A program made the translations under genes and the position numbers. Shown here one piece after another: positions 7,816 through 30,931 of a DNA stretch of 32,000 bases. Source of the stretch: Balneolaceae bacterium UBA7797 (GTDB lineage Bacteria > Bacteroidota > Rhodothermia > Balneolales > Balneolaceae); assembly GCA_002480645.1 (NCBI GenBank), contig DLCN01000003.1, forward strand, positions 276,355-308,354, written 5' to 3'. The notes beneath the pieces were generated by a model that saw only the letters and a program-made list of their open reading frames with translations, was not told the DNA's origin and searched no databases. Each line of letters opens with the position of its first letter. The first letter of the stretch is position 1.

Positions 7816-7833
7816 AGTGTACGACTTTATACT

Positions 7834-8631
7834 TTATAGTTGTGTCTTATTCCGGCGCATATGGGCCTGCAGTTTATCGTAGATCTGTAATGAGGTTTTT
7901 TGATTTTCGATAAGTAAAACGCCTTCCAGTATCATTTTTTCACGAAAATATTGAAGTGAAGCAATATTATTCATTTTTCGGGCCATAGGAATGAATATGA
8001 AGTTACCAATGATGATCCCATATAAAGTGGTCATAAGCGCAGCTGCCAGTCCTGTAAGCAGAGACTCTACTTCGTTGAACCCTGAAAGCATCACAATAAG
8101 GCCAAAAAGTGTACCCAGCATTCCAAATACAGGGGCAGATTTACCCATGCTCATTATGATCTGATTGATCTGCAATTGTTTAGAGAAATTCTCCTCAATA
8201 TTTATCTCTCCCAATTCCCGGAGTTCCTCTGAACTATAGTTGGTATCCATCACAGAAAACAAATAGCCTTCGAAGGTTTCCATATAATCTTCACTTAATT
8301 GAGCAACCGCTTGTACCCGGTCTTCTTTGATCATTTTCTGCCATTCTAAGATACGTTGAATATCATCCTCTAAAAGGTCATCAGAGATGGTGCTGTGAGA
8401 GAATAAACGCAGGCTTTCCCGATAGGCTCTCAGTACATTTCTAAATGGGTAACTGATAAAGATACTGGCAGAGACACCACCGATCACAATAGCCAAACTT
8501 GGTAGATTCAGATATTCCAGTGTGGTTGGTATCAGCTCATATTGGGTAAAACCCATTACTAATAATGATCCCCACAGTAAAACCATCATGGAGATCAAAA
8601 AGCTGAGTATGTTTAAGATAGAAGTACGCAT
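7834..8631 (-). CDS. MotA/TolQ/ExbB-family proton-channel protein (MotA-like stator subunit)
   Basis: 265 aa. Two N-terminal TM helices are followed by a charged cytoplasmic loop of about 100 aa. The MotA_ExbB core is MGKSAPVFGMLGTLFGLIVML...LAAALMTTLYGIIIGNFIFIPMARKM, with the conserved Pro residues in TM3 and TM4. It lies immediately upstream of the MotB-like gene. Confidence 0.85.
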   Translation of the reverse strand: MRTSILNILSFLISMMVLLWGSLLVMGFTQYELIPTTLEYLNLPSLAIVIGGVSASIFISYPFRNVLRAYRESLRLFSHSTISDDLLEDDIQRILEWQKMIKEDRVQAVAQLSEDYMETFEGYLFSVMDTNYSSEELRELGEINIEENFSKQLQINQIIMSMGKSAPVFGMLGTLFGLIVMLSGFNEVESLLTGLAAALMTTLYGIIIGNFIFIPMARKMNNIASLQYFREKMILEGVLLIENQKTSLQIYDKLQAHMRRNKTQL

Positions 8632-8643
8632 AAGTGGTAATTC

Positions 8644-9147
8644 TTAAAAATTTTTCCTGAATTTGTCATCAAGCAAACCTTGATTCTGTAGCTCTCTGAG
8701 CACATAGTTTGAGTAGGAGAGCGGTAGATTTTCGTCCAGCTCTAAGGCTTTTCTCCAATCCCGTACAAAATTATCAACCGAACCTAATCCCAGAAAGATA
8801 CTACCTCTAAGAGCAAGAATATCTGCATTTTCTTTAAAACCGTACGCCTTGTTTATATAGTAAAGGGCCTGTTCATAATCTCCGTTATAATATCTCTGTT
8901 GAGCCAGGATATAGAATGTTGTAAGTCCGTTAGCCCTGGCCTGATATTCATTGTACAGATCGATCTTATATTGTTTTTTGATCTCGTTTCTTAATGAATC
9001 AGCTACCGAAGACCGATCACTGTCTTCGTTATCCTGTGTATCCTCAGGATCAGTAAAACTCTCAGCAGAGACATCATCCATCGCTTTTTCACTACTTTTA
9101 CACGAAAAAAGCAGGGCGTAGGCAGGAATCATCATGATCACACCCAA
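8644..9147 (-). CDS. Putative TPR-repeat lipoprotein
   Basis: 167 aa. The N-terminus is hydrophobic and ends in a lipobox-like LLFSC, followed by an acidic stretch. TPR-like helices follow (YNGDYEQALYYINKAYGFKENADILALRGSIFLGLGSVDNFVRDWRKALELD). The ORF-track start is TTG at 9147; alternative ATGs at 9135 and 9132 are in frame, so the start is uncertain. Confidence 0.5.
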   Translation of the reverse strand: MGVIMMIPAYALLFSCKSSEKAMDDVSAESFTDPEDTQDNEDSDRSSVADSLRNEIKKQYKIDLYNEYQARANGLTTFYILAQQRYYNGDYEQALYYINKAYGFKENADILALRGSIFLGLGSVDNFVRDWRKALELDENLPLSYSNYVLRELQNQGLLDDKFRKNF

Positions 9148-9181
9148 ATAGAATAGTGATATTTGACTCCTGTTTTTGATA

Positions 9182-11102: not shown

Positions 11103-14102
11103 TTATTCTAATGATCCGCCTATATTTATGATCTGATCCAGAGCTTCCATTTCAGGAATATAAATATCCGGATTAAATCTTACAGCCATATTCCAATTCT
11201 CTCTGGCGAGCTCTTTCTCGCCTTTCAAATAGTGGAGGCTACCCTTTAGAGCGTATCCTTGTGCCGTCTTGAAAATGTCCAGCGATTCGTTAACCAGATC
11301 CATCGCCTGTTCAATTCTTTTTCTGTAGAATGCATTCTGTGCCATAATGATCAAACGTAACGAACGGTCCAGATCATTAAGTAAAGACTCTCTGTATGCG
11401 ACCAATTCTCTGTCTGTTTCTAAACTTGCCATGATCGTTTGAAGCGTATCATTCAGCGCTTCCTGCTCTTCATCATAATCTTTTGGAACGATCAGAAAGT
11501 GTAAGCCTTCTATAAAGTCACCTTCAGATTTTGCCTCCACTTCAATATCCAGTTTTTCGGGGATGGTTCTGGAACCAAGAAGATTCAGCTGACTTTGATC
11601 GACGGTAAGTTCATATTTACCCGGAGGGAGTTCATAATCGTAAAAAGTACCATCCGTAAACGTTCTGATGTCTTTTCTGAAGTCATTTTCAGTACCAACG
11701 ATATGGATATTCAATCCTCCCTGAGGCTGGGTATGACCCTCTTCGTATAACCGCTCTACATTACCTTCAATAACGCCCGATAAATAAAAGGGGATATCGA
11801 TCTTCTTAAAGCTGTTCGGGTCGGTTACAAGCGAGAATTTTTCCAGTTCCGGAACCAGCATCGGATTATTCAGCGAAGCCTTCATCATTTCCATATTGTA
11901 CCGGTAATATGACTGCATCTGCGTGTAATAAAGTACTCCGTTCTTATAGATGGGGAAAGAGCCGGACCTTCCGATCCTCATCTTACCTTCTGGTATCAGG
12001 TTATCTTCTTCTTTATCGTACGTATGATTGTTATTGTTATCTACAAACATACGAATCGCAGTTCCTGATTTACCGACCTGATTTCTGCTCGTGATAATGA
12101 AATTCTTATAGTTACTGTCGTAACCCACCGATCCGCGGACATTTTGTGTGGCCGTATAACTTGTTGAATTGGTGGTAAAGGTGGTGGTAGTTCTTGCTTT
12201 ATTGAATTCAAAAATAAAGCCGATTCTGAAATTTGTATTCTGTGTAATGAAATTCTGCCCCAAAGAAACCTGAATTCGGCCGGTTTTCATAACACTTTTC
12301 GAGATCATCATTTCCATGGATTCAGATTGTTTCAAATACGGTCGGTATCTGTAAGTACCTCTGAAAAATGTCCCGATAAGGAAATCAGGGATCTTTTGTT
12401 CTCTGGTTAAACTATAGGTTACAGAACTGTTAACGGAGGCCGCACGAGTCATCTCCAAAGGGTTGAAGGTATCAATCAGTCTGTCACTGTAGCCCAGTCT
12501 TAAGTTCATTTTCTTAACACGAGTGTTCAGATCCAGTCTGTAGTTTGAAAAATTCTCGTTATCTCTGAAGCGGGTATAGGTAGAAGCCCTCACATTTAAC
12601 GGGAAATTGCCGATCCTGAAAGGATAAAATCCGCTTAAGCTGAGCTGACTACTATTTCCACCTTGATTATACAATCCGGATTGTGCAATAAAGTTTGTGT
12701 AATTAACGCTAAAACTGGAGCTGTTTGCGTATATGGCATTAATTCCGGACCTGAAAAATCCATTTGAGATAGCTTCCATGGTTACAATGTAATTTGTAAG
12801 CAGACGCCCTGATACTTTGGAAGTAATGCTGGGACCGGGATTGGAGACTAACCCGTCAAAATACTCAAATCCGGCTCCGGCTGTCAGCCAGTTTGTAACC
12901 CCCACAGTGGTTTTTCCCTGTACAGTATAATTGCGATCTTCAGATCCTATAAGTGAATTTTTTAGCCTTCCTGCGTTTAAGTGATAGGTGACTTCGCCTT
13001 TAGGATTAAAGTTGAATGGAACCTGTACACGTCTCGATTCCTGAATGATCTGTCCCGTAGGACCGTAAATTCTAAGGTCTAATTGTGAGGATCCATAATA
13101 TAACGGTGCAATAAAACGATATCTCCCCAGATCATCCGCTTTTTGAAAATCGATAAGTGAATTGTTTAAGTACAATTCTACTTCTGATTGTGGAGTCACA
13201 TAACCCTGAACTTCGTATTCATCAAAAAACTGACGGCTTTCAATGGGCTCATTAGTTAAACGCACACCAACATATTGCGAATTCAATGCTCCGTCCAGCG
13301 TATTGTCACCAACAGCTACTTTTGTTATTAGCGGTGTATCTCTGATAATATATCGCCAGCGTAGGTTATTAGTGGCGAAGGTCGAGAATTCCGAATTAAC
13401 TGCTGCAATTGTTGAACCCTGCAGATCCCCACCGGCTAATTGAAGACCAATGTTATTACTCATATTAAAGGTAGTAGAGCTTTGACTATTGATCGCAGAA
13501 ATGGAGTAGTCCATGAAGCCTCCATCAAATGCACTCCATTTCCGGTCAAATTCCAGTGGAAAGAATTCGGTGGTAGTTCGGTAACCACGTTGCATATTCT
13601 CTCTTTTTGCCGTTCTTACCGTTCTTTCGATACGTGGAATAGGAATATTGGTCTCCAGATCTAATGCAAGGTTATTGAAATCAACCGTAAAATTTAGCCC
13701 AAAGATATTTTTAAAAATGTCTGGATGTAAGAAATAGTCCAGCTCTTTGATCAGAACCTCTTCCGGTTTGATCTCTGTAGAGGTACCATCAAATGTAATT
13801 GTATAATTTTCAAGATCGATTCGATACGGAATCTGATCGAGCCCAAAATTTCCCTGGACTACCAGACCATTTACATTGGCTTCGAAATCGAGCGTAGAAA
13901 AAAGACCGTTAACAGGCAGGTAGAAAACATCGTCAAGGTAGTAAGAAGTGACGATGCTGTTAATTACACCACGGTGTCTGAATGCAAGATATACCTCGAA
14001 ACTATCATCCTCGTCTACCTGAGCAACACTGTTAACAGGAAACAGTAATCCAAGTAGCAGAGAAAGAATTAAATAACGGGCAAAATTGCATCTTACATTC
14101 AC
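11103..14102 (-). CDS. Outer-membrane fimbrial usher-like protein with a C-terminal CarboxypepD_reg-like domain and TPR-like tail
   Basis: 999 aa with signal peptide LILSLLLGLLFPVNSVAQ. The segment VQGYVTPQSEVELYLNNSLIDFQKADDLGRYRFIAPLYYGSSQLDLRIYGPTGQIIQESRRVQVPFNFNPKGEVTYHLNAGRL (about 12960-13215) follows the usher pattern seen in PapC/FimD (G.a.p.a.V.v.qNG..i....V.pGpF.i.dl....sGdL.v.v.e.dG......v.vp....l..G...Y.l..Gr). A long region of alternating beta-strand-like sequence follows. The C-terminal part has GVIEGNV...TFTDGTFYDYELPPGKYELTV and a TPR-like end (AQGYALKGSLHYLKGEKELARENWNMAVRFNPD). The start is GTG at 14102 and overlaps the chaperone stop (GTGA). Confidence 0.65.
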   Translation of the reverse strand: MNVRCNFARYLILSLLLGLLFPVNSVAQVDEDDSFEVYLAFRHRGVINSIVTSYYLDDVFYLPVNGLFSTLDFEANVNGLVVQGNFGLDQIPYRIDLENYTITFDGTSTEIKPEEVLIKELDYFLHPDIFKNIFGLNFTVDFNNLALDLETNIPIPRIERTVRTAKRENMQRGYRTTTEFFPLEFDRKWSAFDGGFMDYSISAINSQSSTTFNMSNNIGLQLAGGDLQGSTIAAVNSEFSTFATNNLRWRYIIRDTPLITKVAVGDNTLDGALNSQYVGVRLTNEPIESRQFFDEYEVQGYVTPQSEVELYLNNSLIDFQKADDLGRYRFIAPLYYGSSQLDLRIYGPTGQIIQESRRVQVPFNFNPKGEVTYHLNAGRLKNSLIGSEDRNYTVQGKTTVGVTNWLTAGAGFEYFDGLVSNPGPSITSKVSGRLLTNYIVTMEAISNGFFRSGINAIYANSSSFSVNYTNFIAQSGLYNQGGNSSQLSLSGFYPFRIGNFPLNVRASTYTRFRDNENFSNYRLDLNTRVKKMNLRLGYSDRLIDTFNPLEMTRAASVNSSVTYSLTREQKIPDFLIGTFFRGTYRYRPYLKQSESMEMMISKSVMKTGRIQVSLGQNFITQNTNFRIGFIFEFNKARTTTTFTTNSTSYTATQNVRGSVGYDSNYKNFIITSRNQVGKSGTAIRMFVDNNNNHTYDKEEDNLIPEGKMRIGRSGSFPIYKNGVLYYTQMQSYYRYNMEMMKASLNNPMLVPELEKFSLVTDPNSFKKIDIPFYLSGVIEGNVERLYEEGHTQPQGGLNIHIVGTENDFRKDIRTFTDGTFYDYELPPGKYELTVDQSQLNLLGSRTIPEKLDIEVEAKSEGDFIEGLHFLIVPKDYDEEQEALNDTLQTIMASLETDRELVAYRESLLNDLDRSLRLIIMAQNAFYRKRIEQAMDLVNESLDIFKTAQGYALKGSLHYLKGEKELARENWNMAVRFNPDIYIPEMEALDQIINIGGSLE

Positions 14103-14926
14103 CGGATTGAGATCGTTTCTGAAGCAGTGACCGGATCCATCTGGATCAGATCATTTGAAGATAAATCTGGCCTTTGAGATTCAAACAGGGCAGATACACG
14201 GTAAGTGCCGGGAGCAAGGTCGGTAAGATCGAAATCCTGACGATAAACGCCATCGAAGTACATAGAGGTAGAAATGAAACTACGTCGTACTTCTTCTCCC
14301 GCCGGGTTAAACAAAGAAAGTGTAACTGAACCTAAAAAAGGAGAGTTTCCCGTTCTGTTATAATCCACCATAACAGCGAGACTTCCGTCATCATTTAAAG
14401 AAGAACGAATTCCTTCAATTTCAATTCCGGTTGAAACGTCTCCTTTTTTATAAAAAAGTCCGGTTACCTGTTCTACGGTTATACCAACAGTTGCACTAAC
14501 TACCTCAGAGGTTTGGAGCTCTAAGGGTGGTGCTTCCGGTGACGATTTTGTCTTGATTCTTGCCCAGTAGGTGCCATCATTCAGATCATTAGGAGGGGTT
14601 ACTCTTAAACGAACCATCTGGCGTTGACCCGGTGATAACGTGAAGTTCTGAGGGAAAGCTCTGATATAATCCGCAATAGAATATTGTTGCTGAACCAGGC
14701 TATCATCAACTACAGCAGAGCGGTTGCCATCGTTATCAGTACTGCTATAGGCAAAGAAAAAATCTATCGACACTTCCTGAGTTTGGTTTCCGCCATTAAC
14801 CACCATGTAGGACCCAAACCGTGAATTGGCATCAAGAAATAGATTTGTAGGGGCAATAGTAACCTGAGCAAAGGCTACAGAACCAAACAAAAAACAAGCA
14901 AAGACTGTAATTGATATTCGTTTCAT
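14099..14926 (-). CDS. Periplasmic pilus chaperone (PapD-like, two Ig-like domains)
   Basis: 275 aa with signal peptide FACFLFGSVAFAQ. The N-domain pattern VTIAPTNLFLDANSRFGSYMVVNGGNQTQEVSIDFFF...FPQNFTLSPGQRQMVRLRV...DGTYWARIKT resembles the PapD_N signature (v.i.PtR.i......sl.v.N.g..p..vq......f.v.PP.f.l.pg..q.vRi). A second Ig-like half follows. Its stop overlaps the usher-like gene's start. Confidence 0.7.
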   Translation of the reverse strand: MKRISITVFACFLFGSVAFAQVTIAPTNLFLDANSRFGSYMVVNGGNQTQEVSIDFFFAYSSTDNDGNRSAVVDDSLVQQQYSIADYIRAFPQNFTLSPGQRQMVRLRVTPPNDLNDGTYWARIKTKSSPEAPPLELQTSEVVSATVGITVEQVTGLFYKKGDVSTGIEIEGIRSSLNDDGSLAVMVDYNRTGNSPFLGSVTLSLFNPAGEEVRRSFISTSMYFDGVYRQDFDLTDLAPGTYRVSALFESQRPDLSSNDLIQMDPVTASETISIR

Positions 14927-15014
14927 CGAATTTTTTTTTGTTTTAAAAACTAGGTCAATCTAATAAAAAATCAATTTCAGTGTTCAATTATTTATTAGTT
15001 GAAAAATCACCCCT

Positions 15015-15047
15015 AAAAAAAAAGTCTCACAAAATTGTGAGACTTTT
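15015..15047 (-). terminator. Strong rho-independent terminator directly after the putative major pilin gene
   Basis: Perfect stem GTCTCACA (15024-15031) / TGTGAGAC (15036-15043), extendable by A-T pairs, with a 4-nt loop. On the - strand transcript the hairpin is followed by U9 (A9 at 15015-23 on +). It lies 21 nt downstream of the stop at 15069. T4 on the + side makes it weakly bidirectional. Confidence 0.75.
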
Positions 15048-15068
15048 AAATTCTGTTTTACTGTTTGA

Positions 15069-15590
15069 TTATTGGTAATCAACAGTGATCGCGATATCGT
15101 CTCCACCAGTGTTTGAAGTAGAGTAGTTACCGGCAGTTTCAGTACCTGCGAAGTTGATAGTTCCACCAACATACACATCCAGAGTACCACCGGAAAGAGC
15201 AGTTGCGTGAGCACCATCACTATCAACAGTTGTGCCGTCAAAGATCTCAACATCCATAGTAGGTAGCGGAGTTGTTCCGTCGGTAAGAGTTGCAGATACA
15301 TCATAAGTAATATCGATTGCAGAGTTGCCAGTACCTGTAATGGTAATTCGACCGCGCTGAGAACCGGTTCCGGCACCAGCATCAACTCCGTCAGCACCTA
15401 CAGTAACGTTACCTGAAGTACCGGTTGCAATAGCACCGAAAGATACCGTATCAACTACAGTGATGTTAAGAGAAGCAAGAACGTTTGCAGCTGCACCAAC
15501 GTTGTCAGATGCACTTGTTTGAGCGAAAGCAGCAGTAGAAGCGATAGCAACTACAGCAAGAACAGCGAATATATTTTTGAAAGATTTCAT
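15069..15590 (-). CDS. DUF4402-type pilin-like secreted protein, putative major subunit
   Basis: The preferred start is the ATG at 15590 (MKSFKNIFAVLAVVAIASTAAFAQ, a classic signal peptide), not the ORF-track start at 15641. The mature protein is Thr/Gly/Ala-rich and has the DUF4402-like layout: N-terminal ...LNITVVDTVSFGAIA..., ...RGRITITGTGNSAIDITY..., and a C-terminal ...VYVGGTINFAGTETAGNYS...IAITVDYQ ending. It is flanked by a promoter-like box and a strong terminator. Confidence 0.7.
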   Translation of the reverse strand: MKSFKNIFAVLAVVAIASTAAFAQTSASDNVGAAANVLASLNITVVDTVSFGAIATGTSGNVTVGADGVDAGAGTGSQRGRITITGTGNSAIDITYDVSATLTDGTTPLPTMDVEIFDGTTVDSDGAHATALSGGTLDVYVGGTINFAGTETAGNYSTSNTGGDDIAITVDYQ

Positions 15591-15626
15591 AGTGTGTGGA
15601 CTAAGTGTTGTTTTGAGTTTCTGATA

Positions 15627-15634
15627 CAAAGTTA
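15627..15634 (-). promoter_or_regulatory. Candidate -7 promoter box (TAnnTTTG) for the major pilin-like gene
   Basis: The minus strand reads TAACTTTG (+ strand CAAAGTTA at 15627-15634), an exact TAnnTTTG match 36 nt upstream of the ATG at 15590. No well-spaced -33 TTTG was found. This is motif-only evidence. Confidence 0.3.
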
Positions 15635-15700
15635 GGAGCAATCAGCAAATACAACAAGTTAGATTCTATTAATCAATTTAGGGAGTTTTTAATGTACTCT

Positions 15701-16225
15701 TTAGTCATAAGAAACAATAAGTAAGGCCTCTCCGGAATAGCTTCCGTTTGGGATGTTTCCAATGTTAATTGCCCCTGTTACATATACAAATACATCTTTC
15801 CAGTAATCGGTATTTGCCCCTGTTGTGCTTGCAAAATTGGTCATGTTAATAAAGCCATAGTTATTTGCCAGTAATTTGGAATCAAAAGGGTCGTCCCCTG
15901 AATTGTTATAATAGATATTCAGATCCAGGGGAATATTATCTTCGATAGTAGGATCAGAATGGCTAAGTGCATCGGGATAATCTAATTCGATAGTAAGACT
16001 TTGAGTCCGGTAGGTTCTGATCTTGAATATTCCAAGACTGAGATCATCGAGACCAATTCTGGTAATTCCGGAGTTTGTGGTGAGCGTACCGAAATTTAAT
16101 TCCTGTTCCACCTCAATGGTCAATTCCGGTTCAACATCAATTTCGATATCTATGATCTGGGCGTTTACAAAGATGGGGCAAATAGACAGAATTATGAGAA
16201 CAGAAAAGAATCTTGCTCTAATCAT
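15701..16225 (-). CDS. DUF4402-like pilin paralogue (minor subunit candidate)
   Basis: 174 aa with signal peptide FFSVLIILSICPIFVNAQ. It has ...ELNFGTLTT... early in the mature protein and the C-terminal family ending VYVTGAINIGNIPNGSYSGEALLIVSYD. Its ATG overlaps the upstream gene's stop by 8 nt (ATGATTAG). Confidence 0.6.
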   Translation of the reverse strand: MIRARFFSVLIILSICPIFVNAQIIDIEIDVEPELTIEVEQELNFGTLTTNSGITRIGLDDLSLGIFKIRTYRTQSLTIELDYPDALSHSDPTIEDNIPLDLNIYYNNSGDDPFDSKLLANNYGFINMTNFASTTGANTDYWKDVFVYVTGAINIGNIPNGSYSGEALLIVSYD

Positions 16226-16820
16226 AACTTACCATGATTGTGATCTGACCCTCGTACGTTCCGGCATCAATTGAGCCCACATTCAATGCCCCATATATAT
16301 AGATGTAAGCTGTCTCGTTGTATAATGCCGGGTTATATCCGCTATATACCGGAGTAGGGGGCGGACCCGGTGGATTATTACCACGATATTTGATCGGGAA
16401 CTGAGCACTTGCAATATTTGAAGCTATACTCATTGTGATAGCCTGACTGGTATTATTGAGCCCTCTGTTTGCGTAAGCGGCATTCAATGTAAAGGGTAAC
16501 CGGCAACTGGGGTCACTTACACAGGCAAGATTTCCATTCAATAGCAGGTAGTCGTCGGCGGTGATATCCACAATAACATCTAAATACTTTACGCCTTCAA
16601 TAGACAGAACCTTGGCATCATTAATATCTTTTGAAACCATGCCTTCATTCATGATCACAATACCAAAATCAAGGTCAGAACCGGGAGACAAATCAGAGAG
16701 AGTCACTGAATAAGAAGAACTATATGAACCGAAGTCTATTTCCTGCGCATAACTATGGTTCAATGAAAAAACTACAAGTAGTACCAGATATATAAAAAGG
16801 ATATGTGGTTTTCTTGACAT
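16218..16820 (-). CDS. DUF4402-like pilin paralogue with a Cys-loop and Pro-rich insertion (tip/adhesin subunit candidate)
   Basis: 200 aa with signal peptide ILFIYLVLLVVFSLNHSYAQ. It has ...DLDFGIVIM... and the C-terminal ending IYIYGALNVGSIDAGTYEGQITIMVSYD. It alone carries NGNLACVSDPSCRLPF (two Cys) and NNPPGPPPTPVYSGYNP. Confidence 0.6.
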   Translation of the reverse strand: MSRKPHILFIYLVLLVVFSLNHSYAQEIDFGSYSSSYSVTLSDLSPGSDLDFGIVIMNEGMVSKDINDAKVLSIEGVKYLDVIVDITADDYLLLNGNLACVSDPSCRLPFTLNAAYANRGLNNTSQAITMSIASNIASAQFPIKYRGNNPPGPPPTPVYSGYNPALYNETAYIYIYGALNVGSIDAGTYEGQITIMVSYD

Positions 16821-16829
16821 TATGATCTA

Positions 16830-17330
16830 TCAGATATAATCGATCTCAATTTTAAATTCGCCTCTGTAGTTTCCCGGTGCTGCATTTTCAAGATTTACTC
16901 TGCCGCCAACCCAGAAATAGAAACGACCCTCTGTATTAAATCGTTGAACTTCATCCTGATTCTCGATAATAATGGATGTAGCCTGTTCTTCGATATTATT
17001 TCTGGAGATCTCGTAAACAAAGGTCAGAGTCCCGGTTTCCTGTTGATTGGTGAGAGTAACTTCTTCGTTATAATCTAACCTGAATTCTGAACGGGGTGTT
17101 CCTATTGCGATCATGAACCCGGCATTGGTGTCCATGATCGGATTTACATAAAGTTCGGTTTGTCCCGGTCTTACCCGACCAAAGGTCATTGTATTTACCG
17201 TGATCAACTCGATGGTTTGAACCATCGTGGTCTTAACGCCAATATTAGCGGTGATCTCGGCAGATTTTTGAGCCTGAGCATCCGTAAAAGCGATGGTAAA
17301 TAATAAAAGTATCGTGAAGATATACTTCAT
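16830..17330 (-). CDS. DUF4402-like pilin paralogue
   Basis: 166 aa with signal peptide IFTILLLFTIAFTDAQAQ. It has ...TMTFGRVRPG... and the C-terminal ending FYFWVGGRVNLENAAPGNYRGEFKIEIDYI, the same G-x-Y-x-G...Y-x end pattern as the three downstream paralogues. Confidence 0.6.
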   Translation of the reverse strand: MKYIFTILLLFTIAFTDAQAQKSAEITANIGVKTTMVQTIELITVNTMTFGRVRPGQTELYVNPIMDTNAGFMIAIGTPRSEFRLDYNEEVTLTNQQETGTLTFVYEISRNNIEEQATSIIIENQDEVQRFNTEGRFYFWVGGRVNLENAAPGNYRGEFKIEIDYI

Positions 17331-17427: not shown

Positions 17428-17820
17428 TTACCAGGAGAAAGCGTTGAAGTAAAGAGGGGTCAGATCTATTTCCCGACCCTGTAATTGTAATGACCGTGGT
17501 AAGACCTCGGTTCTGGTCTGGCCATTTACCGTCATGAAATAATTGTAGGTAAGCGACTTATTTCGGTACCGACTTGAAAAATTTACTGTGATGGAATAGA
17601 CACTGTCAATTGGCTCATCGTCTACCATTACTAAACCTCTGGGATTATTAAGAGGGTAGAAGTCTCCTTTGATCTCCAGCACGTCTCCGCGTGATGGTAC
17701 AAAGACACTATCTTCCAGCTCAGATCTCATATCAACATTGAAGGTTATCTTTGACTGTGCGAAGGCAGAGCCTGAGATCAACAACGAGAATAGTAGCAAA
17801 AGTAATGCTCTGAATTTCAT
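17428..17820 (-). CDS. Small secreted protein, probable beta-sandwich (CBM/Ig-like), function unknown
   Basis: 130 aa with signal peptide ALLLLLFSLLISGSAFAQ. The mature part (ITFNVDMRSELEDSVFVPSRGDVLEIKGDFYPLNNPRGLVMVDDEPIDSVYSITVNF) resembles the VTF.VDM...G.FN.W....M.D..gDg.Y.. pattern of starch-binding/early-set-like beta-sandwich modules. That assignment is tentative. It starts 15 nt after the upstream gene. Confidence 0.4.
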   Translation of the reverse strand: MKFRALLLLLFSLLISGSAFAQSKITFNVDMRSELEDSVFVPSRGDVLEIKGDFYPLNNPRGLVMVDDEPIDSVYSITVNFSSRYRNKSLTYNYFMTVNGQTRTEVLPRSLQLQGREIDLTPLYFNAFSW

Positions 17821-17835
17821 GAAGATATTTTGTGA

Positions 17836-19368
17836 TTATTGCCCGGTAGTGGTTGTTGTTCCATCACTATCGTCCTTTTCCGTGGTGGTAGTAGCCGGAA
17901 CTTCTTTAACTTTATCTTTCCAATACACTACAGAGAATACGCTCTCACGAGGAAAAGCAGGGGGAATGTACCCTTTTAGACGGGCATCGTATTGATAGTT
18001 TTTTGAATACCCGGAAACCGCCTGATTGGTATTAGCATTAAAAGTACCAACCGGACCACGATTCTTTTGAACAATTCCACCAAATAGATTTATGGTGCCT
18101 TTTAGCCCCCCGGAACTGTTATTATAATTTTCAACATAGAAAGATGAATTCAGTGCCATGATGGAAGCCTGAATATCAATATCCTGCGTACCACTATCTC
18201 TGTGTGCATTCTGGTCAACAACAACATCACTTTCGCTTACAAGCCCCAAAATATCTGTAGTTACGCTATCCACTCTCGGATCGGTATAATAGGTGATGTC
18301 GCCAATGATATCGATGTCATCTTCGGCGTGTACAGTGATCTCACCTTTAACAATTCCTTTTACCTCAGCTTTACCGGAGGTAGAGATGATACCGTTAAAC
18401 TCGTTCATGGTATAGGATTCAGTTTCTTCAGATTCCACATTGTAGGTCCAGCAACCGAACCAACCGCAACGTACTTCCTGGGTTACGGTAGTAGTGATGA
18501 TGTCAACATATCCGAGCTCATCATCAGCGCTGAACATTACTTTAATGTCGTTATCGAAACGAAGCCCGCCATCGTCGGCAGCAGTAACGAGTTTTTCTAA
18601 TTCATAATTAGTCGGAGCTTCTTTTTCCGGTGCATTAAAGTTAGAACCTCCGTAGAAATTCGGGTTTGTCGGATTAGTTTCGTGAGCAACCCAATTATTC
18701 GGGCTGGTGATCAGACCATAAAACGTTGGGTCTCCGGACATTCTGAATGTTCCGTTTGTATGAATCGGACCGTAGATCTCATCCCCGCTAAAGAACCAGA
18801 TCTCCTGTCCATCAGCTCCCAGTTCAGATTGGGTCATGTATGCATACTTACTGAAAGAATCGCGCTGCATCAGAACCTCAGTTTTAACTTCCACATCCTG
18901 GAAAGTGGTGGCGCTTACGAAAAGGGCTTTGTACTGATCCCAGGTACCAACACTATTATCCGTTGGTATATTTTCACTGCTTTGTGTATATGTAGTTAAA
19001 AGGCCACTTACGGTTGTTCCAACCGTAGATACCACATTTGAATTATCATCAGCGGAATAATTGGCTGTTGATGTAATATTGCCAATAGTTCGGAGGGTTT
19101 TGTCGGTTAATGTACTTGTGAGGTTAGAAGTAATATCACTGACATTGGCTACCTCATTAATATCAATAGTACCCGTCCAGTCATTATCCTTTTTCATATG
19201 CTCGATAGCATTATCGATAAGACTCTTGGATAAATTTCTTGCCTGTTGTTCCTGATAATAACTGATCGTTTTTTCAGGGATGGTCTCCATACGTTTGGCA
19301 TTATTCACCTGTACAAGACCAGTGATAATTGTTAAGCCGCTAACTAGAAAAAGTAAACTTTTACCCAT
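17836..19368 (-). CDS. PilX-N-like pilus-associated protein (set 2, large member)
   Basis: 510 aa. The single N-terminal hydrophobic helix is MGKSLLFLVSGLTIITGLVQV, followed by QQARNLSKSLIDNAIEHMKKD. This parallels the set-1 paralogue (SKNTAHSAIQLAMEKINQD) and the PilX_N pattern. The C-terminal part is beta-helix-like (GIVKGEITVHAEDDIDIIGDITYY...INLFGGIV...YQYDARLKGYIPPAFP) with a Thr-rich tail. Confidence 0.5.
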   Translation of the reverse strand: MGKSLLFLVSGLTIITGLVQVNNAKRMETIPEKTISYYQEQQARNLSKSLIDNAIEHMKKDNDWTGTIDINEVANVSDITSNLTSTLTDKTLRTIGNITSTANYSADDNSNVVSTVGTTVSGLLTTYTQSSENIPTDNSVGTWDQYKALFVSATTFQDVEVKTEVLMQRDSFSKYAYMTQSELGADGQEIWFFSGDEIYGPIHTNGTFRMSGDPTFYGLITSPNNWVAHETNPTNPNFYGGSNFNAPEKEAPTNYELEKLVTAADDGGLRFDNDIKVMFSADDELGYVDIITTTVTQEVRCGWFGCWTYNVESEETESYTMNEFNGIISTSGKAEVKGIVKGEITVHAEDDIDIIGDITYYTDPRVDSVTTDILGLVSESDVVVDQNAHRDSGTQDIDIQASIMALNSSFYVENYNNSSGGLKGTINLFGGIVQKNRGPVGTFNANTNQAVSGYSKNYQYDARLKGYIPPAFPRESVFSVVYWKDKVKEVPATTTTEKDDSDGTTTTTGQ

Positions 19369-19377
19369 GACTACACC

Positions 19378-19962
19378 TCAGAAAGGTAAATTGATGTTAT
19401 TTGGAACAAATATCCTTTTCCAAACACTTTTAGGATATTCTTTCACTGAACTTGAAACGGAATAAGGTTCTCCGGTTTCTACAATAAGCTGAACCTCAAC
19501 CTGTCGAACAAATTCGGGATTGGATGTTTCGGTGCCATTTCCAGTGTAATACTTGAGCTGGAAAAAGGTCGCCGGAAATTTAATGGTACCGTATGAATTG
19601 GCACTGGTAGGCCCTACACGCTTCAGATAATAATCATTAGGATTAGAAGTGGTGGTAACCGGGTCGGAGGTATCGAGATACCATCTTACATTGGTTACCC
19701 CAAAATTATCGGTGTCGTGCGCATCAGATTGAAAGATGATATCGTCATCATCTATTCTTGAAAACGGATCAGAAGATCCGGTGTTAAAACCAATGCGATT
19801 AAAATCATTGGTCATAACCGTTACAATATCATTGATATTATTTTGATTGATGGAGTTTAGGGTAAGTTCCTGTGTGGTAAGTAATACCTGCTGGTTAAAA
19901 CTTAAAATGGAGATCAGGAAAATTCCACCTACTAAAAATGTTGTTACAATACCTACGTTCAT
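19378..19962 (-). CDS. Pilin/pseudopilin-like protein (set 2, PilW/GspJ-like member)
   Basis: 194 aa. The N-terminal hydrophobic helix begins right after MNVG (IVTTFLVGGIFLISILSF), followed by MTNDFNRIGFNTG. It is a paralogue of the 204-aa set-1 protein (LTYDFPKIGYNRN; shared ...PNPNDY/F.LKR...). No Glu is found near the N-terminus. Confidence 0.45.
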   Translation of the reverse strand: MNVGIVTTFLVGGIFLISILSFNQQVLLTTQELTLNSINQNNINDIVTVMTNDFNRIGFNTGSSDPFSRIDDDDIIFQSDAHDTDNFGVTNVRWYLDTSDPVTTTSNPNDYYLKRVGPTSANSYGTIKFPATFFQLKYYTGNGTETSNPEFVRQVEVQLIVETGEPYSVSSSVKEYPKSVWKRIFVPNNINLPF

Positions 19963-19971
19963 GCTTTCACC

Positions 19972-20391
19972 TTAGTAACTATATGATTTAACATAATTAA
20001 GGGTGATAAAGATATCGGGATCGAAAGTGGTGTTTACCACTGTTACCCCAACCTGATAGCGACGTATTGAACCGTCATCTTCGATCATTTCCGATTCTGC
20101 ATACAAGTAAAAATCATCGGAATACTGATCACTTGAGCCATAATTATAAGTGATCGTTTTCGGGTAATCACTGTAAATATAGCGTCCATCATCCGGGTCG
20201 AGCTCTTCTTCAGCATAGATCCACTGAACCTTGTCCAATTCATCCTGTGCGATAGCAATAGCCCTGTATTCGGCTTCAGCTCTGTAAAGAGTCTGCCGGG
20301 ACTGGTTATAGCTCCGGGATGTATTTATGGCCAGCATGGAGAAGACCATCATGGCAGCCGTTAAAAAGATTATTTCAGCGTAGCTCGACAT
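19972..20391 (-). CDS. Pilin/pseudopilin-like protein (set 2, small member)
   Basis: 139 aa. The N-terminus MSSYAEIIFLTAAMMVFSMLAI resembles a shortened prepilin signature (Y-x-E-I instead of F-T-L-I-E). AIAIAQDELD is shared with the set-1 small paralogue (VIAIAQDFID). Confidence 0.45.
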   Translation of the reverse strand: MSSYAEIIFLTAAMMVFSMLAINTSRSYNQSRQTLYRAEAEYRAIAIAQDELDKVQWIYAEEELDPDDGRYIYSDYPKTITYNYGSSDQYSDDFYLYAESEMIEDDGSIRRYQVGVTVVNTTFDPDIFITLNYVKSYSY

Positions 20392-20525
20392 TTTCAGAGT
20401 TTATTATATTTGAAAATACTCAATGTTCGCCCCTTATGTAATTAGACTGTATTAATTAAAATAATCTAAAAAAGCTATTTAAGTCTGCTAAAATTACCAA
20501 TCAGCTCCTAAAATGAAAAGGGCGG

Positions 20526-21635
20526 CTATTCAAAGGTACTTACCAGATTATACCGGTTCTGTTTTAAGTGATTTGCAGATGCCGTTCTTGCATAATCAAT
20601 GGCTAAACAATCATATTGGATATGGATGTTTCCACTCAGGTCCACATCCAGTGTGTTATTATTGTCGTCAGTATTTCCGATCAGAACTGACCCGTTAAGA
20701 TCTGGAGTACCTTTACCATCGAAGTCGAACGCATTTTCGAATACGATCAAACCGTTGAATGTAAAGTTACCGGCTACAGAAAGCGCCCCTTCATACTCCA
20801 GTTCTCCGCCGGAACGGATAACCAAAATTCCATAACCATCAGAGATACCACCCGTTAACTTTGCATAAGATTCTACAAAAAATATACCCGGATCGTCCGC
20901 AGAACCAAATTCCCCCTTATAATTCCCGCTGATGTGCTGAACTCCGGGTTGACCGGCAAGTCGTGCAATTAATTCATCTACCGGCTTGTAGGAGATGTCC
21001 GGATCGATGGAAATCTTATCAACGCTACTTTCCAGGTCACCATACTTACCGAATGCACCGGTTGTTACTTCCGCATAGCTGGAAAGATCAGGAACCGTGA
21101 TCGCGGGAATATCGGGACAGGTGCCACTGGCATCGTTTCCACTAATGGATGAGCTGCCTCCCATGCTAAAAGTGAAATTATCAGAGGCAAAGCCTAATCC
21201 GCCTTTTGGTTCGGGAACGAAATTCAACGCTGATTTAATGTAAGTACTGATCACCGTATGACTGGTGGAAGAGCTTTTGTATGAGGCTGAGCCTTTGGTT
21301 CCTTGTCCTCCGTACCAGGAAGTACTGTAAATTCTTATGGTATCCGGATCTAATATGGTTGCGCCTGCTGCTATCACATCATAATAAAGTTCAGTGTACG
21401 CTCCGTCGATCTCGTTTTCCCAGGGATTATTCACACTCGGCGACCAGGACGGATCCTGATTGATCTTTTCCATTGCCAATTGAATGGCACTGTGAGCTGT
21501 ATTCTTTGACTGTATCTCTTTGGCGTATTCAGAGGTGAGGCGTTGTACACGTTCTCGTTGGCTGTACATGCCGAGCCGGATGATCCCCAGCACCATGATT
21601 GCGCCAACCGATAAAATTACCATTCCACGTCCCAT
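20526..21635 (-). CDS. PilX-N-like pilus-associated protein (set 1, large member)
   Basis: 369 aa. The N-terminal helix is MGRGMVILSVGAIMVLGIIRLGM, followed by AKEIQSKNTAHSAIQLAMEKI. The C-terminal part is beta-helix-like (GILVIRSGGELEYEGALSVAGNFTFNGLIVFENAFDFDGKGTPDLNGSVLIGN). Confidence 0.5.
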   Translation of the reverse strand: MGRGMVILSVGAIMVLGIIRLGMYSQRERVQRLTSEYAKEIQSKNTAHSAIQLAMEKINQDPSWSPSVNNPWENEIDGAYTELYYDVIAAGATILDPDTIRIYSTSWYGGQGTKGSASYKSSSTSHTVISTYIKSALNFVPEPKGGLGFASDNFTFSMGGSSSISGNDASGTCPDIPAITVPDLSSYAEVTTGAFGKYGDLESSVDKISIDPDISYKPVDELIARLAGQPGVQHISGNYKGEFGSADDPGIFFVESYAKLTGGISDGYGILVIRSGGELEYEGALSVAGNFTFNGLIVFENAFDFDGKGTPDLNGSVLIGNTDDNNNTLDVDLSGNIHIQYDCLAIDYARTASANHLKQNRYNLVSTFE

Positions 21636-21646
21636 AGAACTACTCC

Positions 21647-22261
21647 TTAGTTATCCCGAAGGTTTACTGGTGAGAATCTTTTCGTCCATGAGGTGCTTAC
21701 GTATGAGTCGTTTGAAAAACTATTACGTTTTAAGCCCACAGAACTCTGTGTATTCATGATTATCTCGATCTGAGTGATAGAATCAATCGTGGATTTTGCA
21801 GTTTTTGCATAGATGGGAGTCGGGAGCGGGGTAGTGCTTCCTAGGGATGAATAATACCGGATCTCGAAATCAACAACACCAGTATTCATTTCAACGGTAC
21901 TGCCATTTACTGTTCTTTTAAGAACAAAATCGTTTGGGTTTGGTGTGGATGTGACGGAATCACTTGTAAACTCCCACCGGATCAATTCAAGGGATTCATC
22001 CGCACTGTTGTCTATATTGGCATAGAATTCAATAAAATCATCCCCCGCAGCTCTGATCAGGGTGTCCGGTAATGAATTCCGGTTATAACCGATCTTCGGA
22101 AAATCGTAGGTAAGAGTCTCGACAACTTCTGAGACTTTAGTTTTTTGGATTTCCTGAAGTGTTAATTCATTTCCGCTAAAGTTAGTGTTATAGCCAACTG
22201 TGGTAATGATCACGATCAGAAATCCTGCAATGATATAGCTGAGTATTAATCCAAAGTTCAT
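21647..22261 (-). CDS. Pilin/pseudopilin-like protein (set 1, PilW/GspJ-like member)
   Basis: 204 aa with N-terminus MNFGLILSYIIAGFLIVIITTV. It is a paralogue of the 194-aa protein, starts 5 nt after the upstream gene and ends 11 nt before the downstream gene. Confidence 0.45.
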   Translation of the reverse strand: MNFGLILSYIIAGFLIVIITTVGYNTNFSGNELTLQEIQKTKVSEVVETLTYDFPKIGYNRNSLPDTLIRAAGDDFIEFYANIDNSADESLELIRWEFTSDSVTSTPNPNDFVLKRTVNGSTVEMNTGVVDFEIRYYSSLGSTTPLPTPIYAKTAKSTIDSITQIEIIMNTQSSVGLKRNSFSNDSYVSTSWTKRFSPVNLRDN

Positions 22262-22266
22262 AGTGA

Positions 22267-22770
22267 TCAGTCAGCGTAAAAGCTTCGAAGAAACTTAAAA
22301 TGATAGTTGTTTGCAGAGCCGTTATTCTCCAGTATGTCGGAAGAAATAGTGATCTCCATTATTTTAAGTGTCGAAAAGCTATTAATCACATTCGATCCGT
22401 CATAATAATCAACAGAGATCGACACTTCGTAATCAACACCACCTGAAGTAGTGATTGTTTGGGTCCAGCCATCATAGTCATCAAAATCATCGAAATTTGC
22501 GCGGGTAGCTTCTCCGGCTTCAGGGCCCAGATTTGCGGTAAATCCTGAAGGTATATTAACCGGAACTCCACCATCGGTGGTTTCTTCATCAAAGGTAGTG
22601 GAACGGGATTCATCTATAAAATCCTGAGCAATGGCAATGACCTGATCCTCCAGTTCTCCCTCGACCATACTTTGGGTGTTGGTGATAATAGCCCGGTTCG
22701 AGTTCATAACAAGAAATGAAACCAGAATTAATGCTAAGATTGTTTGAAGTATTTCAGTGTATCCACTCAT
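22267..22770 (-). CDS. Pilin/pseudopilin-like protein (set 1, small member)
   Basis: 167 aa. The N-terminus MSGYTEILQTILALILVSFLVM has Gly then Y-T-E-I-L, like a prepilin G/FTLIE site shortened by two residues. It is a paralogue of the 139-aa protein. Confidence 0.45.
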   Translation of the reverse strand: MSGYTEILQTILALILVSFLVMNSNRAIITNTQSMVEGELEDQVIAIAQDFIDESRSTTFDEETTDGGVPVNIPSGFTANLGPEAGEATRANFDDFDDYDGWTQTITTSGGVDYEVSISVDYYDGSNVINSFSTLKIMEITISSDILENNGSANNYHFKFLRSFYAD

Positions 22771-22894: not shown

Positions 22895-25800
22895 TTATTT
22901 TATGAGAGTGAATCGTTTAACGATATTCTTTGAATCGGTAACCAATCGATAGAAATATACACCACTTGCCAGATTATCTGCCCGGAAGGTAACTTCATAT
23001 TTTCCGGGGTTTTTGATCTCATTTACCAGTGTTTTTACTTTCCTTCCCAGAATATCATAAACAATCAGAGATACATTGGTATTGGTATCTACTCCATAGG
23101 GTATGATAGTGGAAGGGTTGAACGGATTAGGGTAATTCTGATCGAGGTATACTTCGGTTGGTACATTCGATTCTATCTCTTCCGTACTGATCTTCAGGGT
23201 AAATCTGGTCGATTTGGAATCAGCTTTCTTCATAATAGAAGAACTTTTATACCGGGGATTAGCTGAGTATAATTTTGTTTTGGTTGTATGGAAGAAGGTA
23301 TAGGATAATTCTTCCATTACATTGATCTCGGTACCGGTATCATTATCAACGAGAGTGATCACCCAATCCGCAGGGATATTTCTCAACCCACTCCACTTAA
23401 TGGTCATTTCTCCGGAGTACGGATCTCCTCCTTCGTAGGCATTAAGCTGAATCGGGATAAAATACCGGCTATCAAAATCGAATGGCAAGTTGTTGATCGC
23501 TAATTCAGTACCGTCATCAAGGAGTGTGTAAAATTCAATATGCGAACTGGACAAGGGGAGAAGTCGGTACGCATCGTAGGTATCTTTGCCAGTAGCAGCC
23601 TCATCAGAGAACATGATATTGGTTCTTTTAGAACGACCGGCATCAGATTCGACCATTAATTGAAGGATAGGTATACCGGCGATCTTCTCTTTACTCTTTG
23701 TGGTATCCTGTGATTGAATGTCATCGGTGGATGCAGTTTTTCTCATAAAACTACCACCGGTGGTCTTGGCCTCTTTCTTAACTTTAAGTACCGGGCTATT
23801 GCCATTTGCTTTTACCCAGAAGCCCTGGAATGGAGCGATCAAACCACCGCCCGGATGTGTTCCCGTAACTCCGTTCCATGTCAGATATTCGCCACTGCCA
23901 CCGTTAGCTGATGGATCCCAGATATAAATAGTTGATTCAACATTGGTCTTCGTCCAGTTCGGTGAATCGTCCCAATCGATGGTTGCCAGATATGGGTTCC
24001 CAACCAGGTTCCAGCCGGAATCGGCCGAAGTGGTGTATGTGATACCAAAATCAACTTCAGCACCATCTCCTCTGAAAGCACGTCCTTCAACATCTAAGGT
24101 ATCCGGAAGCGGGTCGTTGTAAAGTGGGTCGGCAGGAATATCACCAAACAGATAAACGAACATACCCTGACCTTCAGTAACTTTTTGGGAAGTACTGGTT
24201 GGAGTACGGTACCGCTGATTATCTGTTCCGGCATAACTTTCTACATAGGTCAACACATTTGGTTGGAGAGTGTCTCCCGGGTTTGAACCTGTGCTGTAAA
24301 AAGCTCCGGAATAACCCTGAGTTATGATTCCATCGAGAAAATCTCCATACGTGGTATCCAGCGGGGAAGATATGATGCGCCATCCGCGGGATCCCTGGAA
24401 TCTGCGTTGCATTCGCACCGTTCCGGTACCATATAACTCATAATTGCTTACTAAGTTTGTTCCGCTTGGCATGAACAGGGTGCCCGAGGTAAGCTTCAAG
24501 GTGTCGTTAACGATCAGATTACTGAAGAAATCAGCACCGTTAGAATTATCGAGTTCAAGGTTGGAGTACTCGTTCGGACTTGTAACATCCTGATTGGTGG
24601 TTCCATTCAGGATCACAAAACCGAGTGTCACATCAGAAACATCAAAATTACCACCTATCGACAGAGAATCTGTATTACTGCCGGTTATTGAACCACCGCC
24701 GGAAGCTTTATCAGTTACTACAAAATGAATTCCTCCTGAAACAGTAACGGAAGCACCGGATTCAATTGATATCAGCTCGATGGTTGTATTTGTTGAGCTG
24801 ATCACCGGTTGTTCATTACCAACAGATGGATTTGCCGGAATAAGGATCTTATCGCCGGATACAGGGACACTATTTGTTGACCAGTTGGAATTATCATCCC
24901 AGTTTCTGGCATCGGTAACGGTACCAACCTGAGATTGCCATACATTATCAAATTCAGCGAATTCTACGGTTGCCTCGTCGTTTATGGCGCCCCCGTTCAG
25001 CGTTCCGGAAATAGTAGCAATTCCTGCAGCGATCGATGAGGTTAAAGTGGCAGAGTAAGTACCATCACCATTATTTGTTACTGATCCGAGTGTGCCATCC
25101 GTAGTTGATAGTGCAATGGTCGACGGGCTGGTTGTTAAATTGTTCTCGTAATGATCTTTAAGCTGTACGGTAATGGTTGAAGTTGAGAAACCATCGTTTT
25201 GAATGATCGTGGGATTCGCAGTGATAGTTGTTGTTGAAGCATCAGCTGACCCCGGACTTACAACAAAGGTATTACTTGTACCGGTTTCAGATCCTGAGGA
25301 ATTCGTTGCCGTGATAGTACAGGTTCCCGTACTGGTGATCATCATCGATTTTGGAGTGAGCACGCCACTCGTAAATGCTGCTGAGGTTCCCTGGCCAACA
25401 CCAATATCACAGTTTGAAGTAACCACAACGGTCCCTGTAAAGCTGGTTACGGTATCCTGAAGCCCATCTGCTGCAATTATACTGATGTTAAATGTCTGTC
25501 CGGCTAATTTATCAGAGATATTACCGGAAGGTACCCGCTGAATAATAAACTGTGTAAGCTCGCCGGCAGTAACTACATCAAACTCTGTACTTGTTGTATC
25601 TGTAAGACCGGAACTCGAAGCTGTAAGTGTATAAGTACCGATTGCATCCACGTTGATGTCGTCGAATTCGGCAATACCGAACAGATTCGTTTGTTCAGTT
25701 GTGGTTCCTGCTAAACTGCCTGATCCGCTTACCTGATTGAGAGCCAGACTGATATCGACCCTGCTTTCCTCTACTGCGTTTCCATATTGATCGATCAGCT

Positions 25801-30931: not shown

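Follow-up and report, generated by a model that had tools for sequence, protein, structure and literature searches.

What does a giant secreted protein do at the head of an operon that otherwise encodes pilin-like proteins and the parts of a fibre? The question is raised by a stretch of 32,000 nucleotides (the window) from Balneolaceae bacterium UBA7797 (GenBank assembly GCA_002480645.1, contig DLCN01000003.1), which in our genome set is G000:C8:276355-308354; this genome is 99.2% complete, in 32 contigs. Here a reverse-strand gene encodes a protein of 2678 amino acids (aa), hereafter the giant, that starts with DUF2341 and LamG domains and ends in a type IX secretion system (T9SS) sorting domain. 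Its gene stands second in an array of 19 genes that all run in one direction, DUF4402, chaperone-like and usher-like genes among them. We consider it rather probable that the giant is a Sec- and T9SS-exported surface adhesin that works as a T9SS-delivered accessory adhesin of the downstream DUF4402 fibre, a reading that leans on analogy with a known fimbrial protein, Mfa5; the suggestion in a preliminary description of this DNA that the giant is the adhesin or cargo of the cluster stays the best one. Taken alone, the giant is an ordinary, if very large, T9SS adhesin, and its combination of head and tail has already been named by NCBI in Cytophagales. What is new here is that such cargo is coupled, across genomes, to a fibre operon of the usher type and shows allelic behaviour like that of Mfa5.

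The frame at 22895-30931 on the reverse strand is open over 2678 aa, and its coordinates were correctly described before. It is a real gene rather than a chance open reading frame (ORF), because intact, stop-free orthologues of 2500-2724 aa occur in 19 other Balneolaceae genomes. Its N terminus (MRRYFKLLFLIIVVQMLAAYQQNVFAQ) is by sequence a typical Sec signal peptide, which AlphaFold2 models as a helix over aa 2-21. As the preliminary description had proposed, the adjacent N-terminal domains are DUF2341 (30.8 bits against a Pfam cut-off of 23.4; 38.4 bits in a scan of the genome) and Laminin_G_3 (61.3 bits, cut-off of 27.6), both above the gathering score, and the C terminus carries a Por/T9SS sorting domain. 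The latter matches Por_Secre_tail (PF18962) over aa 2600-2674 (33.3 bits, cut-off of 27; the match stops 4 residues short of the stop codon) and the NCBIfam model of the type A sorting domain, TIGR04183 (36 bits, cut-off of 23).

Between these ends, two further LamG-like regions score below the Laminin_G_3 cut-off, one with an E value of 0.001 (19.7 bits, over positions 1-148 of the 151 in the profile) and one with an E value of 0.006 (17.2 bits). Five repeats of ~134 aa are arranged as two plus three (aa ~352-486, 486-620, 886-1020, 1020-1154 and 1154-1290), and both blocks come after a LamG-type domain. The copies resemble one another with E values of 1e-25 to 1e-42 (1e-35 to 1e-42 for repeats 1-2) when fragments are compared with the whole protein by phmmer; blastp of the giant against its own sequence returned only the identity match. 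Against Pfam, the repeat has only weak matches to Cadherin_3 and CLSTN_C, which are cadherin-like. The stretch at aa ~1526-2085 comprises an N-terminal domain with the motif SGFEWDTGG, followed by immunoglobulin (Ig)-like modules that include Invasin_D3 (aa 1897-1992, 81.6 bits). The Pfam search of the giant gave no vWA match, the NCBIfam scan yielded only a weak tandem-95 match beyond TIGR04183, and no enzymatic domain was seen anywhere in the protein.

The genes that accompany the giant were traced through 81 Balneolaceae genomes (UBA7797 and 80 drawn evenly from the family; G-numbers denote genomes). The head (aa 1-360) has a match in 23 of them, and 20, including two in which the gene is cut by a contig end, encode giants, which form a class A of ~2660-2724 aa and a class B of ~2512-2541 aa. 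Orthologues of the 626-aa FliG-domain protein of the window occur in 18 genomes (E < 1e-100), and usher-like genes in 60 (E <= 1e-30). The co-occurrence of the giant with its downstream genes, a point raised in the preliminary description, is borne out: giants share contig and strand with an usher-like or FliG-domain gene in 16 of the 20 giant-bearing genomes, the other four assemblies being fragmented there, and in none of the 20 does a class A or B giant lie demonstrably outside the operon context.

We fetched 27 operons and annotated them by BLAST against the proteins of the window; they come from related genomes picked via matches, and counts from them describe this sample and are not independent statistics. 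Their common order is one or more T9SS cargo genes, zero to three triplets of pilin-like genes, DUF4402 genes, and then the chaperone-like and usher-like genes; a subset continues after the usher-like gene with genes for a FliG-domain protein, a TPR protein, MotA and MotB. Every complete operon has three DUF4402 genes and most have a fourth. No complete operon inspected lacks DUF4402 genes a-c, the chaperone-like gene or the usher-like gene; the operon of G036 is cut by a contig end and that of G028 is interrupted. A cargo gene that encodes a T9SS C-terminal sorting domain (CTD) heads 22 of the 27. Giants occupy the 5' end in all 12 DUF2341 operons fetched, followed by triplets or DUF4402 genes, and occur in two size classes and in zero to three tandem copies per operon. 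Pilin-like triplets vary across genomes and are present in 19 of the 27. The constant partner of the cargo gene is the DUF4402, chaperone-like and usher-like core, and not the triplets.

The same comparison separates the giant into two parts. Of the 22 cargos at operon heads, 12 have the DUF2341 head and 10 are headless (1256-2449 aa). Most of the headless orthologues, those of 1256-1761 aa, have a signal peptide of their own and then pick up where the giant reaches residue ~1525-1550, staying collinear with it to the C terminus; the 1256-aa protein of G077, for example, aligns to residues 1526-2678 with 41-43% identity. In the two largest and most divergent headless proteins (G039, 1758 aa; G055, 2449 aa), the shared part is limited to the Ig-like repeats and ~570 aa at the C terminus. 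Judged by these alignments, the giant is a ~1520-aa N-terminal head block added to a conserved body of ~1150 aa. The head block, which runs DUF2341-LamG, two repeats, LamG-like, three repeats, LamG-like, can be described as an optional, putatively lectin-type extension. The body consists of Ig-like and Invasin_D3 modules, a beta-helix-like stretch, a ~410-aa beta-sandwich module before the CTD (the pre-CTD module) and the type A CTD. Residues 1570-2100 have no paralogue elsewhere in the UBA7797 genome; in the other genomes, in which only the operon-head regions were inspected, the conserved body was seen only there.

Pieces of both parts also occur beyond this operon. The pre-CTD module (aa 2176-2588) occurs in 13 of the 82 CTD proteins of the UBA7797 genome, and when 1.84 billion representatives were searched with its profile, 21,058 clusters (at 50% identity) contained it, 15,536 of them at E <= 1e-10. 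In nearly all of the best 150 of the 21,058, it ends ~95-100 residues before the C terminus. Named members are 'T9SS type A sorting domain-containing' or hypothetical proteins of Balneola and Balneolaceae, and no Pfam family matches over the module; it is a candidate new domain family of T9SS cargo (~380-410 aa, all-beta). The head, for its part, is found on 747 large homologues with very diverse bodies from bacteria and archaea, among them RHS/YD proteins, proteins of Patescibacteria, Acidobacteriia, Planctomycetota and Omnitrophica, and archaeal proteins.

For the head (aa 1-360), AlphaFold2 with an alignment of 58 metagenomic head sequences returned a very confident model (predicted local distance difference test (pLDDT) 92.8, predicted template modelling score 0.88), in which the signal helix is followed by two tightly packed beta-sandwich domains, DUF2341 and LamG packing as one unit. 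The LamG part has the concanavalin A-like jelly-roll fold: Foldseek searches of the PDB with the head model retrieved such jelly rolls (E ~1e-11, 12-20% identity, ~200-240 aligned columns), including a lectin-like sub-domain within the binding domains of clostridial neurotoxins and domain 4 of the GH43 arabinanase AbnA. We rejected a relationship to the toxins, as the concanavalin A-like fold is all that is shared and a catalytic or translocation domain is absent; on the model, the likeness is at the level of the fold, typical of LamG and carbohydrate-binding modules and nothing more. The last 598 aa were modelled less confidently (15 Balneolales sequences, pLDDT 75) as two beta-sandwich regions between a short beta-helix-like stretch and the CTD. 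Foldseek matched this tail model only to generic Ig- and fibronectin type III-type adhesin and S-layer chains and to T9SS CTDs, with the modelled CTD superposing on those of RemA (8gl6_D) and PorZ. Neither the head nor the last 598 aa had a meaningful match when searched by sequence against the PDB.

Export by T9SS presupposes that the genome encodes the system. T9SS cargo exits the periplasm through SprA, and in studied systems PorU removes the CTD. Of the components that the preliminary description had named, SprA (SprA_N, 334.8 bits, in a frame of 2432 aa that lies ~40 kb from the window), PorU (1077.7 bits, cut-off of 420, encoded immediately upstream of porV) and PorV (300.1 bits, cut-off of 250) score above curated cut-offs, whereas GldK, GldL, GldM and GldN are without matches. 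Because SprA, PorU and PorV are present and 82 ORFs of the genome end in the tail domain of the giant (detected with a hidden Markov model iterated from that tail), the genome encodes at least these parts of a T9SS rather than lacking the system. The negative result for the Gld proteins covers TIGR03517, PF12081, TIGR03513 and PF19841, none of which matched in the genome, TIGR03525, which matched only a 244-aa generic FGE-sulfatase, and flavobacterial GldL, GldM and GldN, which gave no phmmer match. The GldM model scores above its cut-off in 14 of 61 genomes of the phylum, with one weak sub-threshold match in the class Rhodothermia (G103) and none in 8 Balneolaceae genomes; the GldK model exceeds its cut-off in none of 41 Rhodothermia genomes. 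G103 has a possible gldLMN-like operon, the genes of which gave no match in the UBA7797 genome. These results for GldKLMN/PorKLMN may reflect strong divergence in the class or a T9SS that runs without these proteins.

Some candidates for T9SS components proved to be other proteins. A locus in G151 considered for GldK/L/M/N encodes a CTD-bearing FGE-sulfatase protein, and a marginal GldL match is a chemotaxis receptor. At the porU/porV locus (G000:C13:33959-41774), a 1059-aa protein is encoded after porV; it was rejected as PorU, since it matches NF052323 (T9SS-dependent inactive M6-like protease, 1238 bits) and the true PorU lies upstream of porV. The genome encodes at least 8 further PorV-like (FadL-like) paralogues.

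The closest analogue of the giant is Mfa5 of Porphyromonas gingivalis, by likeness of mechanism and not by family membership. The mfa1 fimbrial operon encodes Mfa5, a protein with a signal peptide and a type IX CTD (PMC7835359); when its CTD or porU is deleted, Mfa5 is trapped in the cell and the fimbriae are few and lack accessory proteins (PMC8512630, PMC7835359). Alleles of mfa5 vary widely in length and without exception retain the CTD and the C-terminal half; the N-terminal vWA part is missing from some of them, and many strains have a tandem pair (PMC8512630). The Balneolaceae cargos resemble this protein in being large and adhesin-type, in combining a Sec signal with a T9SS CTD, in being encoded inside an apparent fimbrial operon, and in having a conserved C-terminal half, a variable or missing N-terminal part and tandem copies. 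They differ in that mfa5 is the last gene of its operon and the cargo genes here are the first, and in that the incorporation of Mfa5 into the fibre has been demonstrated, whereas here a link of the giant to the fibre is suggested by conserved gene order.

The giant would cross the inner membrane by the Sec pathway and the outer membrane through SprA with PorV, after which PorU would cut off the CTD and fix the new C terminus at the cell surface or to a partner. As the anchor would be at the C terminus, the far end of the protein would present the head, with DUF2341 and LamG at the distal tip of a rod of ~20 beta-rich domains that, as estimated from the number of domains, may be ~100 nm long. 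There the lectin-type head would bind a glycan-type ligand. The conserved body may, more tentatively, associate with the DUF4402 chaperone-usher-like fibre, as gene order and the Mfa5 analogy suggest, which would make the giant its accessory adhesin.

Several observations weigh against this reading. Mfa5 is built of vWA and isopeptide-stabilised Ig-like domains, whereas the giant has DUF2341/LamG and ~134-aa repeats, and the partner of Mfa5 is a type V fimbria of Bacteroidia, whereas the fibre here is DUF4402 chaperone-usher-like, with no genes of the Mfa1-4 type. The pre-CTD module is generic and therefore cannot alone specify attachment to a fibre. No cargo gene stands at the head of 5 of the 27 operons (G011, G024, G058, G070 and G071), so the fibre core has no strict need for the cargo. 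The lack of GldK/L/M/N matches and the relatedness of the 27 sampled operons count on the same side. Giants of Roseivirga sp. and Ekhidna sp. (Cytophagales), which NCBI names 'DUF2341 domain-containing protein', are stand-alone genes. The heads of these proteins are 42-44% identical to that of the giant over aa 1-350 and they share its type A tail, but they are ~2170 aa long, carry four DUF2341/LamG units, lack the Balneolaceae body and are flanked by unrelated genes, with no pilin neighbours.

One rival explanation makes the giant an independent T9SS adhesin or glycan-capture protein that would have its neighbourhood, and perhaps its regulation, in common with the fibre genes but no physical link to the fibre, the operon head being a hot spot for variable adhesin genes. 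The stand-alone Cytophagales genes, the head on 747 giant proteins with diverse bodies, the generic pre-CTD module, the free variation in copy number and class and the five operons without cargo all speak for this explanation. It is harder to reconcile with a body that has no paralogue over aa ~1526-2100 in its own genome and that comes first, always facing the same way, in 22 of 27 operons from many genera, or with the finding that in 0 of 20 genomes is a class A or B giant demonstrably outside the operon; we regard it as possible but doubtful. A partner of the triplets similar to MshQ or PilY1, with the giant seated on a triplet tip complex, has a different starting point. The N terminus of MshQ, which belongs to the mannose-sensitive haemagglutinin (MSHA) pilus of Vibrio cholerae, is annotated with the DUF2341 plus LamG layout, and MshQ and PilY1, like the giant, are large secreted proteins adjoining three minor-pilin-like genes. 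The literature confirms that DUF2341 forms N-terminal extensions of MotA/ExbB-type proteins (PMC12505986), as the preliminary description stated, and that type IV pilus loci of archaea contain genes for DUF2341 proteins, one of which is needed for pilus-dependent transformation (PMC4858521, PMC10133366). The lead from DUF2341 to pili was thus reasonable, and it gains from the archaeal loci, from the 11 of 27 operons that combine head and triplets, and from PilB/PilT-type ATPases encoded elsewhere in the genome. Yet the further claim, that the head ties the gene to the pseudopilin-like sets, did not hold, as the conserved part is the C-terminal ~1150 aa and strict co-inheritance is absent: beside those 11 operons, 1 has the head without triplets (G056), 8 have triplets without the head (G005, G011, G021, G024, G030, G046, G067 and G077) and 7 have neither, and the class (A or B) and number (0-3) of giants are unrelated to the type or number of triplets. 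MshQ is encoded downstream of the minor pilin genes mshDOP; its predicted mode of retention, like that of PilC/PilY1, is an extreme C-terminal strand inserted into a PilK-type pilin (PMC12918778). The giant, by contrast, is encoded upstream of the triplets, both in the window and in each of the 11 operons with head and triplets, and its last ~80 residues are a cleavable T9SS CTD in place of a free docking strand. An MshQ-type tip role is unlikely for these reasons. The export route (SprA) differs too, no type IV filament machinery is encoded in the cluster, and no A24 prepilin peptidase was detected in the genome, which fits pilin-like proteins with almost no leader. As a whole, we consider a triplet-borne giant very improbable.

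A third explanation sees in the giant a mobile adhesin similar to SprB, dragged or rotated by the FliG-domain/MotAB-type motor of the operon in a gliding-type or fibre-rotating system. SprB and RemA of Flavobacterium johnsoniae are likewise giant, repetitive surface adhesins delivered by T9SS, and the RemA CTD superposes on our model; the gene for the giant is co-directional with those for a FliG-domain protein and a MotA/MotB pair, canonical gldL and gldM are undetected, and DUF2341 giants occur in 14 of the 18 genomes with an orthologue of the FliG-domain protein, an enrichment that may reflect the relatedness of these genomes. Giants are nevertheless found in operons without motor genes (G006 and G008), and motor-bearing operons without giants (G033, G067, G069 and G071). 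The CTD of SprB is of type B and that of the giant of type A; SprB is moved by GldLM-driven machinery, the genes of which are without matches here; neither SprB nor RemA resembles the giant in sequence outside the CTD; and no track or coupling protein was identified. We give this explanation very little credence. Somewhat less remote, although still improbable, is a hybrid organelle in which T9SS giants would be the distal adhesins of a DUF4402 fibre that, in a subset of genomes, is driven by a flagellar-type FliG/MotAB rotor. If such an organelle exists, three envelope systems would be combined in a machine for adhesion or motility of a kind not described before, and this in bacteria without detectable gldLM.

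Under the reading that we favour, an accessory adhesin of the DUF4402 fibre, a cargo that truly joins the fibre would be the second independent case, after Mfa5, in which a T9SS substrate completes a fimbria made by another pathway. With an usher-type pathway as that partner, this would suggest a general way in which Bacteroidota mount large adhesins on thin fibres. DUF2341/LamG heads occur on hundreds of giant proteins from bacteria and archaea, with no ligand assigned so far, and the modular build seen here, a conserved body with a swappable 1520-aa lectin-type head and zero to three copies per operon, offers an easy experimental system for the question of their ligand.

Features of the giant and of its operon in the window (aa, residues of the encoded protein; -, reverse strand).
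Feature	Position in the window	Strand	Basis
Giant T9SS cargo gene, 2678 aa	22895..30931	-	ORF and translation; Pfam and NCBIfam matches; orthologues
Predicted Sec signal peptide without lipobox cysteine, aa 1-26	30854..30931	-	Read from the sequence; N-terminal helix in the model
DUF2341 (PF10102), aa 77-141	30509..30703	-	Pfam
LamG-1, Laminin_G_3 (PF13385), aa 200-333	29933..30334	-	Pfam; AlphaFold2; Foldseek
Repeats 1-2 of the ~134-aa module, aa 352-620	29072..29878	-	phmmer self-comparison
LamG-2 (below cut-off), aa 695-868	28328..28849	-	Laminin_G_3 match
Repeats 3-5 of the ~134-aa module, aa 886-1290	27062..28276	-	phmmer self-comparison
LamG-3 (below cut-off), aa 1409-1521	26369..26707	-	Laminin_G_3 match
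First part of the conserved operon-head body, aa ~1526-2085	24677..26356	-	Collinear with headless orthologues
Pre-CTD module, ~410 aa, all-beta, aa 2176-2588	23168..24406	-	AlphaFold2; profile search; no Pfam model
T9SS type A C-terminal sorting domain, aa 2600-2674	22910..23134	-	PF18962; TIGR04183
First operon gene (T9SS cargo), C-terminal 323 aa	31029..32000	-	Por_Secre_tail, 41.1 bits
Two pilin-like triplets (167/204/369 aa and 139/194/510 aa)	17836..22770	-	Hydrophobic N-terminal helices in the translations
130-aa secreted protein	17428..17820	-	
Constant core: four DUF4402-type subunits, 275-aa chaperone-like gene, 999-aa usher-like gene	11103..17330	-	DUF4402 matches
Usher-like gene	11103..14102	-	
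FliG-domain protein (626 aa), TPR protein, MotA-like protein, MotB/OmpA/SPOR proteins	6010..11062	-	Pfam; present in a subset of operons

The remaining genes of the array place the giant in its setting. The second T9SS protein that the preliminary description saw upstream is the first gene of the operon, which continues past the end of the window to a full length of 1211 aa in the genome and contains the pre-CTD module (406.9 bits); the array begins with this cargo, and the genes beyond it run on the opposite strand. The pseudopilin-like sets directly downstream of the giant, also pointed out there, are the two triplets, which follow on the same strand. A scan predicted no intrinsic terminator that would separate the cargo genes from the triplets, and it gave no informative promoter. 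The 510-aa triplet protein contains DUF4900.

Elsewhere in the UBA7797 genome, a second giant with DUF2341 and LamG domains (G000:C7:70418-109550; 3153 aa) has a head 37% identical to that of the giant in the window, a C terminus that is DUF11-like by eye and no T9SS tail. Its neighbours are a 2388-aa ORF, a row of ORFs in which two of ~590 aa are scattered among five of ~460 aa, and a CTD cargo of 2537 aa, which contains the pre-CTD module; this may be another surface-structure locus. The PilB/GspE-type (594-aa frame) and PilT-type (413-aa frame) ATPases lie at G000:C2:187461-190497, far from the window.

Among the triplets of the fetched operons, the gene for the 130-aa protein follows 13 of the 16 copies of the B-type triplet and is never found after an A-type triplet or in operons without triplets, so that the B-type set is often a four-gene unit. 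In one operon (L037, G006:C24), the gene of the 510-aa triplet type is split into two ORFs of 214 and 201 aa, which suggests decay.

The fibre core varies in smaller ways. Across the 60 family genomes that encode it, the usher-like protein falls into two length classes, of ~1000 aa and of ~1150-1240 aa. The C-terminal ~120 aa of the shorter class were matched only in operons that continue with FliG-domain/MotAB genes, and the longer class sits in operons without these genes. The interrupted operon of G028 (L039-L040, G028:C13:182000-221999) is broken after the third DUF4402 gene, its usher-like gene lying ~30 kb further on. In three of the operons without cargo (G058, L238; G070, L231-L232; G071, L032-L034), a conserved-looking pair of ORFs of ~360 and ~500 aa stands right before the DUF4402 genes.

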